From Candidatus Pacearchaeota archaeon (lineage in GTDB: Archaea; Nanobdellota; Nanobdellia; Pacearchaeales; JAPDKA01): a DNA stretch of 51,807 bases. The position numbers and the translations under genes were made by a program. Shown here piece by piece: positions 18,349-38,021 of the stretch (within the stretch, counting starts at the first letter, position 1; the number at the start of each line of letters is the position of its first letter). The notes beneath the pieces are model-generated. The model was not told the DNA's origin. It saw nothing but the letters and a program-made list of their open reading frames with translations, and did not search any database. The DNA lies in assembly GCA_038817835.1 (NCBI GenBank), contig JAWAZI010000005.1, forward strand, positions 1 to 51,807, in the 5' to 3' direction.

Positions 18349-21300
18349 ATGGAATTTGAATATAAAGGACTTTGTCCAAATTGCAATAATACTATAAGTT
18401 CTAAAAGATTAGAGAAAGGCTTACCATGTGAAATTTGTTTGCCAGATAATTCAAAAAAAATTAGAGAAGGTTTTATTACTAGATTAGCTTTAAGAAACAA
18501 AAATTTGGAAGAAATCGAGAAAATTTTTCAGAAAATTTTGAAAACTAACATGTGGGCTTTGCAAAGGTTCTGGGCAAGAAGATTTCTAGAAGGAGAGAGT
18601 TTTGCTTTGATTACTCCTACAGGAAGTGGAAAAACTACTATGCAAATTATACTAAGCTTGTATGCTTCATCAAAAATGAATAAAAGATGTTTAATAATTT
18701 TACCAACAAGCATTCTTGTGCATCAGGTTAGCGAGAAATTAAAAAATTTTAAAGAAAGCCTTAACTTGCAATTAGAAATAGCATTTTATCATAGCATGCT
18801 AACAAAGAAACAAAAAGAAGAACAGCTTAAAAAAATGGAAAAAGCTCAAATAATAGTTACTACTCACTTAAGCATAATGAAAAAGAAAGAAATAAACTCA
18901 CAAAATATTGATTTAGTTTTTGTTGATGATGTTGATAGTTTTCTTAAGAGAAGTAAAAGCGTTATGTACGTTTTTAAAATGCTAAAATTGCCAAGAAAAA
19001 TTAAAAATATAATTCTAAAAGTTTATGAAAAGAAAATCGAGCTGAAAGATGCTTTGCAAAAAATAGAAAAAATGAAAAGCAAAGAAGAAATCAAATGCCA
19101 AGTTATAGTAAGCGGTGCCACTCCGAGAGGAAAAAGAACTAGAAGCATTCTTATTTTGACTAGGCTTTTTGGCTTTACTTTGGGAGGAAAGTTTGAATTT
19201 GGAAGAAAAATCCTAGATGCTTACCTTAAGCCAAAAAAATCTTTTGAAGAAGAGGTTTTAGAAATAATTAAAAAAGTTGGTGGAGGAGCTTTAATTTTTG
19301 TTCCTTCTGAGAAAGGAAGTAATTTTGCAGAAAGTTTAGAAAAATATCTTCAAGAAAAAAACATAAAAGCAAGAGCTTTTCTCAAGCCAAATAAAAAATA
19401 CTTTGAAATGTTTGATAAAGGCGAGCTTGATTGTTTAATAGGAATGGCAACTATAAGAAGCCCTTTAGTTAGAGGAATAGATTTACCTCATAGGATAAGA
19501 TATGCTATTTTTGTAGGCATTCCAAAGTTTTTGATAAGAATTAACATTCAGGAATTTCATCCTACAAAATGGCTTATGCTTTTGAATAATATTTCTCATG
19601 CAATAGGAGAAAATTATAAGAAAGAATTTGAGATTTTAGTTCAAAAATTAGCTAAAATTAAAACTTTAACATCAGAACAATTGAAAATTATTAGAGAAGC
19701 TATCAGAGATAATAAAAAATTAGAAGGTTTTCTTGAATATGCAAGAGAAATTGCTTTAAGAGGAATGGATTTCTTTCAAAAAATACTCAAAGATCAAAAC
19801 ATAATTAAAGCATTAAAAGAATCTCCTACGATATCTTTTGGAATTGAGAAAAATGAATATTATTTTTTAGTAGTCGATGAAATTGCCTATATTCAAGCAA
19901 GCGGAAGAACAAGTAGACTTTACATAGGAGGCTTAACAAAAGGATTAAGCATTGTTATTATAGATGATGAAAAAGCATTTAATAACCTTAAAAAAGAGCT
20001 TAGCTACTTTGAAGATATAGAGTGGAAAAATTTTGAAGAAATTGATTTGCCTTCTTTGATAAGAGAAATAGACGAAGATAGAGAAAATGTCTTGCTAGCA
20101 CAAGAAGGTAAACTTAAAGTTGAGGAGAGAATTTCTCTTTCAACTATTCTTTTCATAGTGGAATCGCCAAACAAAGCAAGGACTATAGCAAGATACTTTG
20201 GAAGACCTTTCAGAAAAAATATTGAAGATTTGAAAACTTTTGAAGTTTTTATAGAGAATTCTTTAGCTATAATAACAGCAAGTAAAGGTCATATTACTGA
20301 TTTAGATTTAGTTGAAGGTTTGTTTGGAGTTAAAGTTAATAACGATTTTGTTCCTGTTTATAGAGCAATCAAAAAATGTAGATACTGTGGGAAAGAAGTT
20401 GAAAATGATGCTTGCCCTATTTGCAATAAAAAAGATTTTATTAGCTCTGAGCCAAGAATTAAAGTTTTAAGGAGAATTGCAAGCTTAGTTGATAAAGTAG
20501 TAATAGGCACAGATCCTGATGCTGAAGGAGAAAAAATAGCTTTTGATTTGTATCTTTTGCTTAAACCATTTAATCAAAACATCAAAAGAGCAAGGTTTCA
20601 TGAAGTTACAAAAAAAGGAATAATTAACAGTTTAAAAAATTTAGAGGATTTTGATCTTAAGCTAGTAGAAGCACAGGTTGTGAGAAGAATTCAAGATAGA
20701 TGGATAGGTTTCAGCATAAGCCCTGTGCTTTGGAAAGTTTTCAATAATAATAAACTTTCAGCAGGTAGGGTTCAAACTCCTGTTTTAGGTTGGATATATG
20801 AAAGAACTAAAAAGTTGAAGGAAAAACAAGAGTTAATAAACGTTATTTTAAAGAATGGTCTAAAACTTTCTTTCAAGGGTGAGCTTGGAACATTGAAAAA
20901 AATTTTGAAAAACAGAGTTGCAGATATTCTTAAAGTAGAAAGAAAAGTAGAGGAAATTAACCCATATCCTCCTTTCACAACAGATACTTTAATTTCAGCG
21001 CTCACTTCTTCATTAAAAATTGATGCAAATGAAGCTATGAAAATAGCTCAAAAACTTTTCGAGAGCGGTTTAATAACTTATCACAGAACTAATAGCACTA
21101 CTGTAAGCAGCACCGGAATAGCGATAGCGAAAGATTATATCTCTTCAAAATTTGGAGAGCACTTTGTTAAAGAAAGAAGATGGCAAACTGAAGGGGCTCA
21201 TGAATGTATTAGACCAACAAAAGCTATAGATTTGGAAAGATTGAGAAGCATGATAGCTCTTAAAACGATTAGAGTTGCTTTAAGTGAGCAAGAGCTTAAA

Positions 21301-21879
21301 GCTTATGATATAATTTTCAAAAGATTTATAGCAAGTCAAATGAAAGCTACGAAGGTAGAAAAGGTTTATATAAAAGTGTTAATAGCAGGAAAAGAAATGG
21401 ACTTCGAGTTTTTAACAAGGGTATTGGAGCATGGTTTTTCAAAGATTGCTCCTATTTATACAAAAGAAATCCCAGAAGTTAAAGAAGGAAAACAATGGAT
21501 TTCCTTTGTTAGAAGAAAGGTTGTTCAAGCTTATTATCCGTTTACTTATTCCGAAATAGTTTCTATGATGAAAGAAAAAGGTATAGGAAGACCTTCAACT
21601 TATGCCAAAATTTTGGAAATTTTGAAGAAAAGAGAATATGTTAAAGAAATTAATAAAAGGCTTGTTTCAACTTTGCTTGGTGCAAGAGTTTATTTCTTCT
21701 TGAGAGAAAAATATGGAAAATATCTAAATGAAGAATTGACAAAGATTTTAGAAGAAAGAATGGATAAGATCGAAAAAGGTGAAGCCAAAGCTCAAGAAGT
21801 TATAAAAGAATTTTTTACAGAAGTTAATGAAATAATGAAAAATGCTATGAAAAAAGGTGTAAGATATAATATAAATTAA
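18349..21879 (+). CDS. rgy: Reverse gyrase
   Basis: N-terminal CxxC..CxxC, Walker A TPTGSGKTT, DDVD, QASGRTSR, Toprim IVESPNKA, second Zn finger CRYC..CPIC, DPDAEGE, LSAGRVQTP, catalytic ITYHRT, GIGRPSTYA; 1176 aa. Confidence 0.97.
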   Translation: MEFEYKGLCPNCNNTISSKRLEKGLPCEICLPDNSKKIREGFITRLALRNKNLEEIEKIFQKILKTNMWALQRFWARRFLEGESFALITPTGSGKTTMQIILSLYASSKMNKRCLIILPTSILVHQVSEKLKNFKESLNLQLEIAFYHSMLTKKQKEEQLKKMEKAQIIVTTHLSIMKKKEINSQNIDLVFVDDVDSFLKRSKSVMYVFKMLKLPRKIKNIILKVYEKKIELKDALQKIEKMKSKEEIKCQVIVSGATPRGKRTRSILILTRLFGFTLGGKFEFGRKILDAYLKPKKSFEEEVLEIIKKVGGGALIFVPSEKGSNFAESLEKYLQEKNIKARAFLKPNKKYFEMFDKGELDCLIGMATIRSPLVRGIDLPHRIRYAIFVGIPKFLIRINIQEFHPTKWLMLLNNISHAIGENYKKEFEILVQKLAKIKTLTSEQLKIIREAIRDNKKLEGFLEYAREIALRGMDFFQKILKDQNIIKALKESPTISFGIEKNEYYFLVVDEIAYIQASGRTSRLYIGGLTKGLSIVIIDDEKAFNNLKKELSYFEDIEWKNFEEIDLPSLIREIDEDRENVLLAQEGKLKVEERISLSTILFIVESPNKARTIARYFGRPFRKNIEDLKTFEVFIENSLAIITASKGHITDLDLVEGLFGVKVNNDFVPVYRAIKKCRYCGKEVENDACPICNKKDFISSEPRIKVLRRIASLVDKVVIGTDPDAEGEKIAFDLYLLLKPFNQNIKRARFHEVTKKGIINSLKNLEDFDLKLVEAQVVRRIQDRWIGFSISPVLWKVFNNNKLSAGRVQTPVLGWIYERTKKLKEKQELINVILKNGLKLSFKGELGTLKKILKNRVADILKVERKVEEINPYPPFTTDTLISALTSSLKIDANEAMKIAQKLFESGLITYHRTNSTTVSSTGIAIAKDYISSKFGEHFVKERRWQTEGAHECIRPTKAIDLERLRSMIALKTIRVALSEQELKAYDIIFKRFIASQMKATKVEKVYIKVLIAGKEMDFEFLTRVLEHGFSKIAPIYTKEIPEVKEGKQWISFVRRKVVQAYYPFTYSEIVSMMKEKGIGRPSTYAKILEILKKREYVKEINKRLVSTLLGARVYFFLREKYGKYLNEELTKILEERMDKIEKGEAKAQEVIKEFFTEVNEIMKNAMKKGVRYNIN

Positions 21880-22376: not shown

Positions 22377-23147
22377 TTATTCTAAAATTTCAATCTCTTC
22401 AAGAGATTTTAAAAAGATCTCAGGTTTATTTTTGTAAATTTCTACTTTTCCTTTTACTTTTACTTCTTTTTTCTCATAAATTTTTAAATTTTGATTAGAG
22501 AAATTTAATATTGCTACAAAACAATTATATGGATATTTTCCTTCAAAATTTAGATAAGTTTTATTTTTTGTAATATAAACCTCAAAAATTCTTCCATATA
22601 AAGTTACTTCTTTTCCAACAAAATTTATCGCATTACATACATGATAGTCATTCCATTTACAACCTATTTTATTTTTTCTACTTAATTCCTCAGATTTTAT
22701 AAAAATTTCACTATATTCATCATCACTGACTCTTGCTATAGCATATCCTTCTTGAATCATTTTTAAATTTATATTTTCTCCATTTAAAATTATATATCTT
22801 AAACTTCTGTTATAAGCATCAACATCTTTATCAAAGTATTCCCCAATTACTTCTTTGTTAAGTAAAATTTCTTCAAGTCTATATTTTGCAGCATAATAAC
22901 ATTTTTCATTTTTTTCATCAGCATCAATTCCATTAAGCCTTATTACTTTTCCATTAGCTATTATAGTATCACCATCAATTATTTTTGTAACAAACAAAAT
23001 TTCAGTATTTTTTACTTTTTCATTTTTTATTTCTTTTATAGAATATGCATGAAAATTTTCTTTATTTTCTTTATTATGAAAAAATAAAAAATAAACAAAA
23101 ATTAAAGCAATAATTATTATTAAAATCAATAAAAAATTTTTTCTCAT
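22377..23147 (-). CDS. Membrane-anchored thermonuclease (SNase-like) with C-terminal OB-fold-like domain
   Basis: N-terminal TM; IIDGDT, IRLNGIDADE, DAYNRSLRY, GYA; C-terminal VGKEVTLYG..YLNF..VKGKVEIYKNKPEI. Confidence 0.88.
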   Translation of the reverse strand: MRKNFLLILIIIIALIFVYFLFFHNKENKENFHAYSIKEIKNEKVKNTEILFVTKIIDGDTIIANGKVIRLNGIDADEKNEKCYYAAKYRLEEILLNKEVIGEYFDKDVDAYNRSLRYIILNGENINLKMIQEGYAIARVSDDEYSEIFIKSEELSRKNKIGCKWNDYHVCNAINFVGKEVTLYGRIFEVYITKNKTYLNFEGKYPYNCFVAILNFSNQNLKIYEKKEVKVKGKVEIYKNKPEIFLKSLEEIEILE

Positions 23148-26749: not shown

Positions 26750-26861
26750 GAAGATGGCCATAGGCTGGTGGAAACGCCTGTTCCCATTCCGAACACAGAA
26801 GCTAAGCACCAGCCGTTGTGGATTGTACTGCTGAAGAGTGGGAACTCCACAAGCCATCTTC
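26750..26861 (+). rRNA. rrf: 5S rRNA, unlinked, 112 nt
   Basis: Helix I GAAGATGGC/GCCATCTTC; helix II GCTGGTG/CACCAGC; conserved CCCATTCCGAACAC loop; GTA/GAA loop E-like motif. Confidence 0.93.
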
Positions 26862-27204
26862 ATTTTATTAAATATTTTATCTCAATTTCTTTAATTTTAT
26901 TCTCTAATTCATTTTTCTGAGTATATGGAGAAAGACGGAAAAGAGGATAAAGATAAGATGCTATTTCAGTAGGTAAAATTTGATTTGAAGCTAATATCTC
27001 CCTTTTTGATTTTATAGATACTTCAATCATTGGAAAATGATAAATAAAATGCTTATTATTTTTTTCGATTATTCCTTTATATATTATTCTTCCTTCATAG
27101 TTCTCAAATAAAGCTCCAAGATTTGGATTATCTTTATCTTTTATAACTAAATAACTTCCACATAGAATATTATTAAAAGCTTTTTTAACTAGTCTCTCTT
27201 TCAT
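26860..27204 (-). CDS. Hypothetical protein (114 aa)
   Basis: ORF fills the gap between 5S and tRNA-Met; no motif recognised; TGA overlaps the 5S 3' end. Confidence 0.6.
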   Translation of the reverse strand: MKERLVKKAFNNILCGSYLVIKDKDNPNLGALFENYEGRIIYKGIIEKNNKHFIYHFPMIEVSIKSKREILASNQILPTEIASYLYPLFRLSPYTQKNELENKIKEIEIKYLIK

Positions 27205-27263
27205 AATTTTATCAAATGCAAAAATTAATAAAAATTTTTGTTATTACTATTAATAGATATATT

Positions 27264-27335
27264 GCCCCGGTAGCTCAGTGGTAGAGCGCCGCTCTCATAA
27301 GGCGGTAGTCGTGGGTTCGAATCCCACCCGGGGCA
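27264..27335 (+). tRNA. tRNA with CAT anticodon, probably elongator tRNA-Met (Ile2 not excluded)
   Basis: GCCCCGG...CCGCT-CTCATAA-GGCGG...GTGGGTTCGAATCCCAC-CCGGGGC-A; lacks initiator A1-U72 and the GGG/CCC anticodon stem. Confidence 0.9.
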
Positions 27336-27380
27336 TAATTATATCTAAGATATATTATATCCTAAAGCATAAAATATAAA

Positions 27381-29924: not shown

Positions 29925-29984
29925 TTACTACTTTAAAATAATAATAAAAGAAAAATTTTTAAATTAAAATTTCTTTATATAATT

Positions 29985-30689
29985 ATGAGAAAATTATTAT
30001 TGCTTTATAGTTTGATATTTAATTTTATATTTAATAATTGGGATTCTAATTTTAATAGCAACTATAATATTTCAAAACAAAATTATAAATTAGAAAAAAA
30101 AGAAGAAAATTTGAAAATTAATTATTATTTTCCTGGAGATGAAAAAGTTATTTATAATGACGTAATCAATAATATTAAAAAAAATGAAAGAATAATTTTG
30201 CAAGATATTATAAAAAAAGAGAAAAAATTAGAAAAATATAAAAAAATAATAGATAAAACTTGCAAAGAAGAGTGGGAAAAATATCTGATACAATCTTTAA
30301 TTATGGTAGAAAGTGGTGGAAATGAAAAAGCAAAAAGTAAAAAGGGAGCAATAGGTTTAATGCAATTAATGCCATGCTTAATTGAAAAATATAAAATTAA
30401 TTTAAATAAAGCTTATGATCCAAAAATAAATATTAATATAGGTTATCAAGAGCTAATAAATTTAATTGATAAATATGGAAATCTTTATTTAGCATTAAGT
30501 GCTTATAATTGTGGAGAAAATAAATTAAAAAAAATTATAAAAAAATACGGAAAAGATTGGGATGTTATAAAATATAAATTACCTAAACAAACTTATGCTT
30601 ATGTTGTAAAAGTATTAAGTAGATATTATCTTAAATATAATAATAATTTAAAATATGTTTTAGATTCTATTAACTTAAAAATTTATTAA
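29985..30689 (+). CDS. Lytic transglycosylase (SLT domain) with N-terminal signal/anchor
   Basis: IMVESGG (catalytic Glu), SKKGAIGLMQLMP, NINIGYQEL, LALSAYNCGE, LPKQTYAYVVKV. Confidence 0.9.
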   Translation: MRKLLLLYSLIFNFIFNNWDSNFNSNYNISKQNYKLEKKEENLKINYYFPGDEKVIYNDVINNIKKNERIILQDIIKKEKKLEKYKKIIDKTCKEEWEKYLIQSLIMVESGGNEKAKSKKGAIGLMQLMPCLIEKYKINLNKAYDPKININIGYQELINLIDKYGNLYLALSAYNCGENKLKKIIKKYGKDWDVIKYKLPKQTYAYVVKVLSRYYLKYNNNLKYVLDSINLKIY

Positions 30690-30744: not shown

Positions 30745-31146
30745 ATGGATAAACAAACAGCAAAAACTTTAGTTTTAGTAATAGCTATACTATATTTTAT
30801 ATTTGCACTAATATCATTAATTGCAGCAATTGTATTTTTTTTAGGAGGAAAGTTTGTTGCATCTTTGATACCTATACCTGGAGGAAAAGCATTGATAGGA
30901 GCTATATCAATAATTTTAGGGATAGTATTTTTAATTGGTGCAGCAATTGATTTATTTGTAGGAATTGGTTTATTAAGATATAACAATGTTGCAAGAATAG
31001 TAGCAATAGTATTTAGTGTTTTAGGCATAATAATGGCAATACCATCAGTAATTTATGGAATTGGAATAATTTCACTGATAATAAATGGAGGGATATTTTA
31101 TTTATTGACATTCCAAAAAGAAGTTGTAGATTTGTTTAGAAAATAA
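30745..31146 (+). CDS. Small 4-TM membrane protein of unknown function
   Basis: Four hydrophobic segments; GIGLLRYNNVARIVAI. Confidence 0.75.
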   Translation: MDKQTAKTLVLVIAILYFIFALISLIAAIVFFLGGKFVASLIPIPGGKALIGAISIILGIVFLIGAAIDLFVGIGLLRYNNVARIVAIVFSVLGIIMAIPSVIYGIGIISLIINGGIFYLLTFQKEVVDLFRK

Positions 31147-36554: not shown

Positions 36555-38021
36555 ATGGTGAGTGAAGATAAATTAAAAATTATAAAAAAAATTTCAGATA
36601 CTGTTTGGGAAATTCCAAAAAGTTATAAAGGTTTTATGAGGGTTCCTGGAAGAATAATTGCTAATCAAAAATTGCTCTTAGAGATGGACGATGCTGTTAT
36701 TGAACAAACAGCAAATGTAGCATCTTTGCCAGGAATTGTTGGTTATAGCTTTGCAATGCCAGATGCCCATTGGGGATATGGTTTTCCTATTGGTGGTGTT
36801 GCAGCTTTTGATGTTAATAATGGTGGAGTAATAAGTCCTGGTGGTATAGGTTTTGATATTAATTGTGGTATGAGATTAGTTAGAACTGATCTAACAATTG
36901 ATGATGTTAAACCTAAAATTAAAGAATTAATAGATAATTTATTTGAGAGAGTTCCATGTGGGGTTGGTAGTAAAGGATTTTTAAAACTTAATAAGCAAGA
37001 ATTTAAACAACTTTGTGAAGAAGGGGCTTTATGGATAGTAGATAAAGGTTTTGGTTGGAAAGAAGATTTGGAAACAACTGAGGAAAATGGTTGTATGGAA
37101 GGAGCAGATGCTAATAAAGTTAGTGAAAAAGCAATAGAGAGAGGCATAGACCAAGTTGGTACTCTTGGTAGTGGAAATCATTATTTAGAAATTCAATGGT
37201 TAAAACCAGAAAATATTTTTGATGAAAAACTAGCTAAAAAATGGGGACTTTTTCCAAATCAAGTTGTTATTATGTTTCATTGTGGCTCTAGAGGTTTTGG
37301 GCATCAAGTTGCAAGTGATTATTTACAAATATTTTTGAGAGTTATGGAAAGTAAATATGGAATAAAAATATTAGATAGAGAACTTGCAGCAGCTCCTTTT
37401 TATAGTAAGGAAGGACAAGATTATTTTGCTGCAATGAAATGTGCAATGAATATGAGTTTTGCAAATAGACAATTAATTTTGCATAGAATTAGAGAAGTTT
37501 TTGAGAAAGTTTTTAAAAAAGATGCTGAAAGTTTAGGAATAAAGCAAGTTTATGATGTTGCTCATAATTCTGCAAAATTAGAAAAGCATGAATATAATGG
37601 AAATAAAATTGATTTACTAGTGCATAGAAAAGGAGCAACAAGAGCTTTTGTTGCAGGAATGAAAGAAATTCCGAAAAAATATATTGATGATGGGCAGCCA
37701 GTAATTATAGGTGGTTCTATGGAAACAGGGAGCTATTTGCTAGTTGCTTTACCAAAAGCAAAAGAAACTTTTTATAGTACTGCACATGGTTCTGGAAGAA
37801 CTATGAGTAGAGAAAAAGCAAAGAAAATTGTAAAAGGAAAAGAATTAATTGAGAAATTAGAAAAAAGAGGAATTTATGTTAGAGCTGTTAGTTATTCTGG
37901 TGTAGCAGAGGAAGCAGGATTAGCTTATAAAAATATTGATGAAGTTGCAGAAGTTACAGAACTTGCAGGAATAAGTAAAAGAATAGCCAAGCTTATACCT
38001 ATAGGAAATATAAAAGGTTAA
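36555..38021 (+). CDS. rtcB: RNA-splicing/repair ligase RtcB
   Basis: MPDAHWGYGFPIG, DINCG, GSGNHY, HCGSRG, YDVAHN, HRKGAT, HGSGR; no intein. Confidence 0.97.
   Translation: MVSEDKLKIIKKISDTVWEIPKSYKGFMRVPGRIIANQKLLLEMDDAVIEQTANVASLPGIVGYSFAMPDAHWGYGFPIGGVAAFDVNNGGVISPGGIGFDINCGMRLVRTDLTIDDVKPKIKELIDNLFERVPCGVGSKGFLKLNKQEFKQLCEEGALWIVDKGFGWKEDLETTEENGCMEGADANKVSEKAIERGIDQVGTLGSGNHYLEIQWLKPENIFDEKLAKKWGLFPNQVVIMFHCGSRGFGHQVASDYLQIFLRVMESKYGIKILDRELAAAPFYSKEGQDYFAAMKCAMNMSFANRQLILHRIREVFEKVFKKDAESLGIKQVYDVAHNSAKLEKHEYNGNKIDLLVHRKGATRAFVAGMKEIPKKYIDDGQPVIIGGSMETGSYLLVALPKAKETFYSTAHGSGRTMSREKAKKIVKGKELIEKLEKRGIYVRAVSYSGVAEEAGLAYKNIDEVAEVTELAGISKRIAKLIPIGNIKG

Follow-up and report, generated by a model that had tools for sequence, protein, structure and literature searches.

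Proteins with a lytic transglycosylase domain have been described repeatedly in archaea of the Pacearchaeota and Woesearchaeota. Large extracellular proteins of this kind (fam00969, up to ~3000 aa) were reported from both groups and proposed to serve in attachment to bacterial walls (Castelle 2021; PMC8204110), in a paper that cites Rinke 2013 and Castelle 2015 for earlier observations. GH23 genes in Woesearchaeota led to a 'vampiristic' model (Vigneron 2022; PMC9723730), a 2024 study of vent chimneys found a GH23 murein transglycosylase in many Pacearchaeota genomes and speculated on bacterial symbiosis (PMC11537232), and an oxygen-deficient-zone survey makes the same SLT observation. Indeed, the inference of a bacterial target in Pacearchaeota/Woesearchaeota is already in print (PMC8204110, PMC9723730, PMC11537232, PMC10936187). 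A first reading of the locus described here, made from the DNA letters and referred to below as the original prediction, noted that peptidoglycan hydrolases of archaea were not unprecedented, and the archaeal enzymes Woldo and Danwoldo (Halogranum salarium) do kill bacteria experimentally (Strock et al. 2025; PMC12352652). The same authors found such enzymes to be prominent in Nanoarchaeota; they analysed modular enzymes only and assayed haloarchaeal M23 peptidases, so that single-domain enzymes like the one considered here were excluded from the survey and no DPANN enzyme was among those assayed (PMC12352652). A GH25 muramidase transferred to Aciduliprofundum has also been described (Metcalf 2014, as cited in PMC12352652). 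The cultivated DPANN hosts cited in these papers are all archaea (PMC8204110, PMC9723730, PMC11537232, PMC12352652).

The window analysed here, 51,807 nt long, is an entire contig (C5) of a Candidatus Pacearchaeota archaeon genome of 572 kb in 22 contigs (86.6% complete, 1.6% contamination). An ORF on its forward strand (29985–30689, start codon ATG) encodes a 234-aa protein that the original prediction took to be an exported lytic transglycosylase, and this identity is upheld: the Pfam SLT domain (PF01464) is matched over residues 88–190 at E=1.3e-25 (89.6 bits; cut-off 21.3), the same locus was found with 91.2 bits by a whole-genome SLT search, and the closest fold matches are to lytic transglycosylases. 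Neither a second domain nor a peptidoglycan-binding module (LysM, SPOR or PG_binding) was detected in the protein by Pfam. With the fam00969 proteins it shares the phylum, the SLT/GH23 domain, a predicted extracellular location and a proposed role in binding or degrading bacterial walls (PMC8204110), but those proteins are large, whereas the present one is a small single domain in a conserved housekeeping neighbourhood. With Woldo/Danwoldo and the Aciduliprofundum GH25 enzyme it would share the type, namely an exported murein-cleaving enzyme of bacterial ancestry in archaea that lack murein, although those enzymes belong to the M23 peptidases or to GH25, carry wall-binding modules and occur patchily, in many cases on plasmids.

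The SLT motifs, predicted to be intact, were all located on the forward strand. Motif I (GAA AGT, 30309–30314) encodes the putative catalytic Glu109 and Ser110, which sit within 'MVESGG'; it is followed by motif II, GLMQ (residues 124–127, 30354–30365), motif III, AYNCG (residues 173–177, 30501–30515), and motif IV, TYAYV (residues 203–207, 30591–30605). In an alignment of the protein with 58 homologues (A1), residues E109, S110, S118, G121, G124, Q127, L128, Y174 and G177 are invariant and T203 is nearly so, and the segment around E109 is matched in the alignment by 'ARQESAWN' in Slt70 (1qsa), where the active-site Glu of that enzyme lies. The signal-like N-terminus has likewise held up, in that residues 1–17 (29985–30035) consist of MRK and a 13-residue hydrophobic core (residues 4–16), with an Asn-rich polar stretch after it. 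A core of this length fits the h-region of a Sec signal better than a membrane helix; a Cys lipobox is lacking at the N-terminus (Cys occurs only at positions 93, 131 and 176), and a class-III (pilin) Gly/Ala cleavage motif is absent there. Judged by hydropathy and conservation, the N-terminus thus fits a Sec-type export signal, and an equivalent basic-then-hydrophobic start is present in two orthologues (L014 and L015, described below) and in every one of the 26 small archaeal SLT proteins whose N-terminus is complete. Lipobox-like signals of the L-x-x-C kind, for example FLIGGC, IIAGC, FLIGC and LISC, are found in several of the small proteins (related-genome loci L023, L024, L037, L038 and L042). 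Between the signal and the catalytic domain lies an Asn/Lys-rich low-complexity linker (residues 18–53, 30036–30143) that is poorly conserved and gapped among orthologues. An unusual positive charge was considered as a wall-binding feature and dismissed, the net charge per residue being only at the 85th percentile of a Lys-rich proteome.

A ColabFold (AlphaFold) model built from the 59-sequence alignment (mean pLDDT 86.1, pTM 0.76) shows a lysozyme-like, all-helical catalytic domain at residues 54–230 (30144–30674), about as long as the whole of MltE, with pLDDT of 94–98 over residues 60–220; the linker is of low confidence and, at residues 31–46 (pLDDT <50), unstructured in the model. In a Foldseek search of the PDB the best 46 matches were all lytic transglycosylases at probability 1.00, with Pseudomonas aeruginosa Slt (6fc4, E=8.7e-6) and Escherichia coli Slt70 at the top, MltE, MltD, MltC, MltF and Cj0843 among the other top matches and goose-type lysozyme lower down. 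A sequence search of the PDB gave MltD (8rhe, 6.6e-7), Slt70 (1qsa, 1.5e-5) and the SLT domain of a phage tape-measure protein (9b45). The NCBIfam scores all lie below the family cut-offs (BB0259, 56.7 bits against 234; MltD, 41.2 against 508; Slt70, 36.6 against 536; EmtA, NF012014, 23.7 against 233; MltC, 18.4 against 375; IagB, 16.5 against 208). Membership in the MltE/EmtA subfamily (1C) was rejected on a score far under the cut-off and the want of a lipoprotein signal, and membership in the Slt70 (1A), MltD (1D) or MltC (1B) subfamilies on low scores together with the lack of a U/L superhelix, LysM modules or DUF3393. We therefore place the protein as a family-1 SLT (GH23) enzyme outside the named subfamilies.

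In architecture, with a signal, a short linker and a catalytic domain, the protein most resembles MltE. Like E. coli MltE/EmtA (2y8p, 3t36, 6ghz), it is a minimal single-domain protein in the range of ~190–230 aa with an N-terminal targeting signal and the shared catalytic Glu-Ser pair; the model aligns with MltE over ~180–190 columns (TM 0.54–0.56 normalised to MltE), and its open groove suggests endolytic cleavage. Identity to MltE is however only 20–23%, the lipobox Cys is missing, so that the protein is no lipoprotein, and MltE works from the outer membrane on the cell's own sacculus, whereas the Pacearchaeote has no sacculus. Slt70 and P. aeruginosa Slt (1A; 1qsa, 5ohu) and MltD (1D; 8rhe) are the best matches of the catalytic domain in sequence and fold and have the same four motifs, but the Pacearchaeote protein has neither superhelical U and L domains, as in Slt70, nor LysM modules, as in MltD. 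The same domain occurs in lytic tail proteins, tape-measure proteins and endolysins of phages (phrog_2013, phrog_669; 9b45), where it serves to pierce another cell's wall from the outside; unlike phage lysins, the present gene is chromosomal and syntenic, its contig has no phage genes, and no close relative lies on viral contigs.

The host was predicted to be an archaeon without phage or conjugation genes near the transglycosylase gene, and the gene content of the window agrees on both counts. Archaeal housekeeping genes found on it include those for replication and repair (reverse gyrase, a family-B DNA polymerase (PolB), Nre and FEN1), for RNA and translation (RtcB, archease, an Elp3-like protein, Trm5/Tyw2, RNase P Rpr2, L7Ae, SBDS, exosome Rrp4/Rrp41/Rrp42 and RpoK) and for other functions (proteasome alpha, enolase, and an AglH-like GT4 protein with STT3/AglB), and the closest named match of RtcB, at 78% identity, is annotated as Candidatus Pacearchaeota archaeon. 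No phage, plasmid or conjugation genes are present on the 51.8-kb contig, no relatives of the SLT gene were found on viral contigs (IMG/VR), and the PHROG matches (phrog_2013 and phrog_669) are confined to the SLT domain. On these grounds a phage endolysin or virion-associated lysin was rejected. A transglycosylase serving a T4SS, T3SS, flagellar or pilus cluster (of the VirB1, IagB/IpgF or BB0259/FlgJ type) was also rejected, as no such cluster adjoins the gene. The composition, predicted to match the host, does so at third codon positions: genome GC is 24.7%, and the GC3 of the gene (10.2%) is at the 43rd percentile among the genome's ORFs, though its overall GC (18.0%) is at the 5th. With GC3 matching the genome, the low GC is attributable to a Lys/Asn/Ile-rich composition and not to foreign origin.

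The genes around the SLT gene encode an H+-PPase, an MFS transporter, archease, a nucleotidyltransferase, a Na+/H+ exchanger and RtcB. Four independent assemblies from other samples (L013, L014, L015 and L016) share the order H+-PPase–SLT–MFS–archease; in full, the shared order is H+-PPase, SLT, variable small genes, MFS transporter, archease, orf245, nucleotidyltransferase, Na+/H+ exchanger and RtcB, and in L015 the genes for Alba and ribosomal protein S17e are immediately upstream of the block. The SLT proteins of these assemblies are about 100% (L013), 55% (L014) and 42% (L015 and L016) identical to that of the window. L013, which represents the same population, differs from the window at 2 of 8125 nt (positions 30245 and 33535), one difference being non-synonymous in the SLT gene (K87N, in the helix that precedes the catalytic domain). 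The syntenic orthologues are limited to metagenome assemblies: when 301 genomes of the order were searched at the protein level, the only matches were distant SLT paralogues (24–39% identity), none of them beside an H+-PPase gene. Because the gene order is shared by independent assemblies and GC3 equals that of the genome, misassembly, contamination and recent transfer of the SLT gene are excluded. The gene is vertically inherited and holds a fixed place among housekeeping genes in at least three lineages that have diverged from one another.

Within this neighbourhood the SLT gene evolves rapidly. Against L014, the neighbouring proteins are 72–91% identical, compared with 55% for the SLT protein and 59% for the adjoining membrane protein. 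By the Nei–Gojobori method, dN/dS of the SLT gene is 0.48 against L014 and 0.81 against L015, compared with 0.15–0.31 for the neighbours, all rough values with dS near saturation. The SLT gene is clearly under purifying selection, with the block VESGxNEKAxSKKG…QL…AYNxGE retained in all three orthologues; the gene changes two to three times faster than its neighbours, as is usual for surface or interaction proteins. In L015 motif IV is lost and the DPxxNI block is partly degraded, and constraint may be relaxed in that part of the clade, the higher dN/dS there being subject to the same saturation. The AT-rich spacer of 60 nt between the H+-PPase and SLT genes (29925–29984, forward strand) is a likely promoter region for the SLT gene itself, although TATA-like runs are ubiquitous at this GC. 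Downstream, on the same strand, an ORF (30745–31146) encodes a multi-pass membrane protein of 133 aa with no Pfam, PHROG or meaningful NCBIfam match. It evolves as fast as the SLT gene (dN/dS 0.45 against L014) and also lies beside it in L014, whereas two opposite-strand ORFs take its place in L015. With neither a family match nor conservation in L015, it was rejected as a holin-like partner.

The presence of an SLT enzyme in an archaeon, which the original prediction treated as a surprise, is less unusual than was supposed. SLT domains are found in 38 of the 61 genomes of the order, the close relatives (28 of 42 genera), and, in a sample drawn from the whole phylum, in 194 of 401 genomes (151 of 281 genera). 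The archaeal SLT open frames are of two sizes, small (200–430 aa) and giant (2000–3100 aa, with 2000–2800 aa among the close relatives), and the window's own genome has the one SLT match and no giant SLT protein. Outside the phylum, the closest named relatives are bacteria of many phyla at ~30–45% domain identity. A domain tree of 115 sequences and 121 columns is weak (57 of 112 forks unsupported) and does not allow a bacterial donor to be named. Within this weak tree the archaeal sequences cluster, with 6 label changes against 28.8 in shuffled trees; the window protein and two syntenic orthologues belong to a group totalling 16 archaeal and 3 bacterial sequences, in which small and giant forms are mixed. 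Constraining the archaea to one clade gave a likelihood 58 lnL better than that of the free search (p-AU 0.97), a result that long branches or AT-driven composition could mimic, and is compatible with a single old acquisition of the archaeal SLT domains.

No homologue of a Mur ligase (Mur_ligase_M) was found in the 87%-complete genome, in a search whose control, run on 14 reference genomes, gave a match in 13, three archaea among them. It follows that neither murein nor pseudomurein is made by the cell, and that an exported SLT enzyme must act on the material of other cells; remodelling of the cell's own wall was rejected for the same reason. The genome encodes a second murein hydrolase, an Amidase_2 protein (C2, 70708–71046; E=1.1e-30), and glycan cleavage together with removal of stem peptides would make a complete wall-opening pair. 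The means of using the products appear to be missing: neither AnmK nor LdcA was found in the 87%-complete genome, and the syntenic MFS protein, considered as an AmpG-type anhydro-muropeptide permease, was rejected because its NCBIfam matches are to generic drug/H+ antiporters and Tet-like proteins only and not to AmpG. The canonical route of anhydro-muropeptide use thus seems to be absent from the genome as assembled. The original prediction had the enzyme used to breach, attach to or feed on bacteria. An external bacterial target is the most economical reading of a genome with an Amidase_2 protein and no Mur ligase; feeding fares worse, given the missing canonical route.

Our current working hypothesis is that the protein, a family-1 (GH23) lytic transglycosylase of a single domain, is exported by the Sec route and attacks the peptidoglycan of bacteria outside the cell that makes it. 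The MurNAc-beta-1,4-GlcNAc bond would be cut with Glu109 as the only acid/base catalyst, leaving a 1,6-anhydro-MurNAc end, and cleavage would probably be endolytic, as in MltE, because no accessory domains close the groove. Together with the Amidase_2 amidase, the enzyme would most likely bring about a local opening of the bacterial sacculus where the host-dependent Pacearchaeote touches a bacterial partner. We regard it as highly likely that the exported enzyme acts on bacterial murein. That the enzyme breaches the wall at a contact site, and does not serve to kill competitors or to scavenge, is a more tentative proposal that we consider quite possible, while the hypothesis taken as a whole, from export through bacterial peptidoglycan to opening at the contact site, is in our judgement the probable explanation.

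Several other explanations were weighed against it. The enzyme might be a secreted antibacterial weapon of the bacteriocin type, lysing competing or threatening bacteria and having no part in host attachment. Other archaeal peptidoglycan hydrolases do kill bacteria experimentally (PMC12352652), the protein has an export signal and no evident membrane anchor beyond the 13-residue core, and the fast evolution of the gene is of the sort seen in arms races. Hydrolases of the weapon type have, however, a patchy distribution, with frequent gain and loss and often a location on plasmids (PMC12352652), and a diffusible weapon is less likely because the SLT gene is embedded among core genes and vertically inherited; moreover, lytic transglycosylases alone reach the Gram-negative sacculus poorly, and an organism with a 572-kb, host-dependent genome makes an unlikely free competitor. 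We consider a weapon rather unlikely. Scavenging, in which the transglycosylase and the amidase would digest the murein of dead or living bacteria for amino sugars and amino acids, accords with a reduced, dependent genome, with a membrane-anchored staphylococcal-nuclease homologue on the same contig (22377–23147) and with the stem peptides that Amidase_2 would release, and peptidoglycan has been proposed as an amino-acid source for Pacearchaeota in the chimney study (PMC11537232). Set against this are the absence of AnmK and LdcA from the 87%-complete genome and an MFS protein that is not AmpG-like; breaching is favoured over muropeptide feeding because the canonical product-use route is missing, and we hold scavenging to be quite unlikely.

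GH23 also includes a chitinase, and the SLT fold may have been re-purposed to act on a beta-1,4 GlcNAc glycan other than murein, either chitin-like or part of the envelope of an archaeal host. Solved lytic transglycosylases bind chito-oligosaccharides (4hjy, 8rhi, 7lam), the known DPANN hosts are archaea, and the archaeal branches of the domain tree are long and strongly diverged. Yet all residues typical of the murein-specific family-1 enzymes are retained, the closest matches, in sequence as in fold, are without exception murein enzymes, and the same genome encodes a murein-specific amidase, so that a non-murein substrate appears improbable. SLT domains are present in about half of a phylum whose only cultivated relatives have archaea as hosts, so that the domains might have a target other than murein altogether. 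The resulting proposal that this small, fast-evolving and core-embedded enzyme has been turned to cutting a GlcNAc glycan of an archaeal host envelope, or some other non-murein polymer, is in our view decidedly improbable; if true, it would mean a new GH23 substrate class and a new mechanism of archaeon-to-archaeon attachment. Finally, the SLT family is overwhelmingly bacterial and its nearest named members outside the phylum are bacteria, as would be expected of a bacterial contaminant, a misassembly or a recent arrival on a mobile element. The gene nevertheless occurs in the same order in each of four independent assemblies, with Alba, S17e, H+-PPase and archease genes on its flanks, its GC3 equals that of the genome, the contig is devoid of mobile-element genes and no viral relative was found; an enzyme for remodelling the cell's own wall, in turn, is at odds with the lack of a Mur ligase. 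The probability of any of these origins or of that role is negligible.

To our knowledge, no one has yet shown whether Pacearchaeota/Woesearchaeota live on bacteria, an idea that rests largely on transglycosylase genes, and we know of no bacterial partner for any Pacearchaeote. With the class of enzyme and the inference drawn from it both in print, the locus on its own adds little. What is new here is modest, namely a small, single-domain, vertically inherited and fast-evolving SLT form in a genome without the giant form. The published giants, at up to ~3000 aa, are hard to express, whereas an enzyme of 234 aa with an obvious control mutant at Glu109 and two natural orthologues is a practical candidate for the first biochemistry of a DPANN SLT protein. 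If DPANN SLT domains cut bacterial murein, this would support cross-domain episymbiosis or predation by very abundant archaea.

Other features of the contig deserve brief mention. The staphylococcal-nuclease homologue (22377–23147, reverse strand; SNase, 2.7e-13) begins with MRK and a hydrophobic anchor of ~20 residues, and may act at the cell surface to scavenge nucleotides, in keeping with dependence on a host. RtcB (36555–38021, forward strand) has a few Pacearchaeota-like matches at 78–83% identity, and the next matches, at ~70%, are annotated as bacterial (cyanobacteria, Acidobacteriota and Deltaproteobacteria); either very strong conservation of RtcB or its transfer between domains may account for these bacterial-annotated relatives. 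A 5S rRNA gene (26750–26862) lies beside a tRNA-Met gene (27263–27336), both on the forward strand, and stands alone, linked to no 16S or 23S gene on this contig. An N-glycosylation cluster occupies the contig end (45458–51807, forward strand) and comprises a SpoIIM-family membrane protein, a GT4 protein (PF00953, AglH/MraY-like), a 953-aa STT3/AglB and two GT1/GT4 glycosyltransferases, the last of which is cut by the contig end. The reverse gyrase (18349–21879, forward strand) is full-length, with zf_Rg, helicase, Toprim and topo IA domains in 1176 aa. Only 2 of 61 related genomes carry a full-length reverse gyrase, this genome and one of the same family (G002, 42% identity), the remainder matching the topo IA half only, and its presence hints at a thermophilic lineage.
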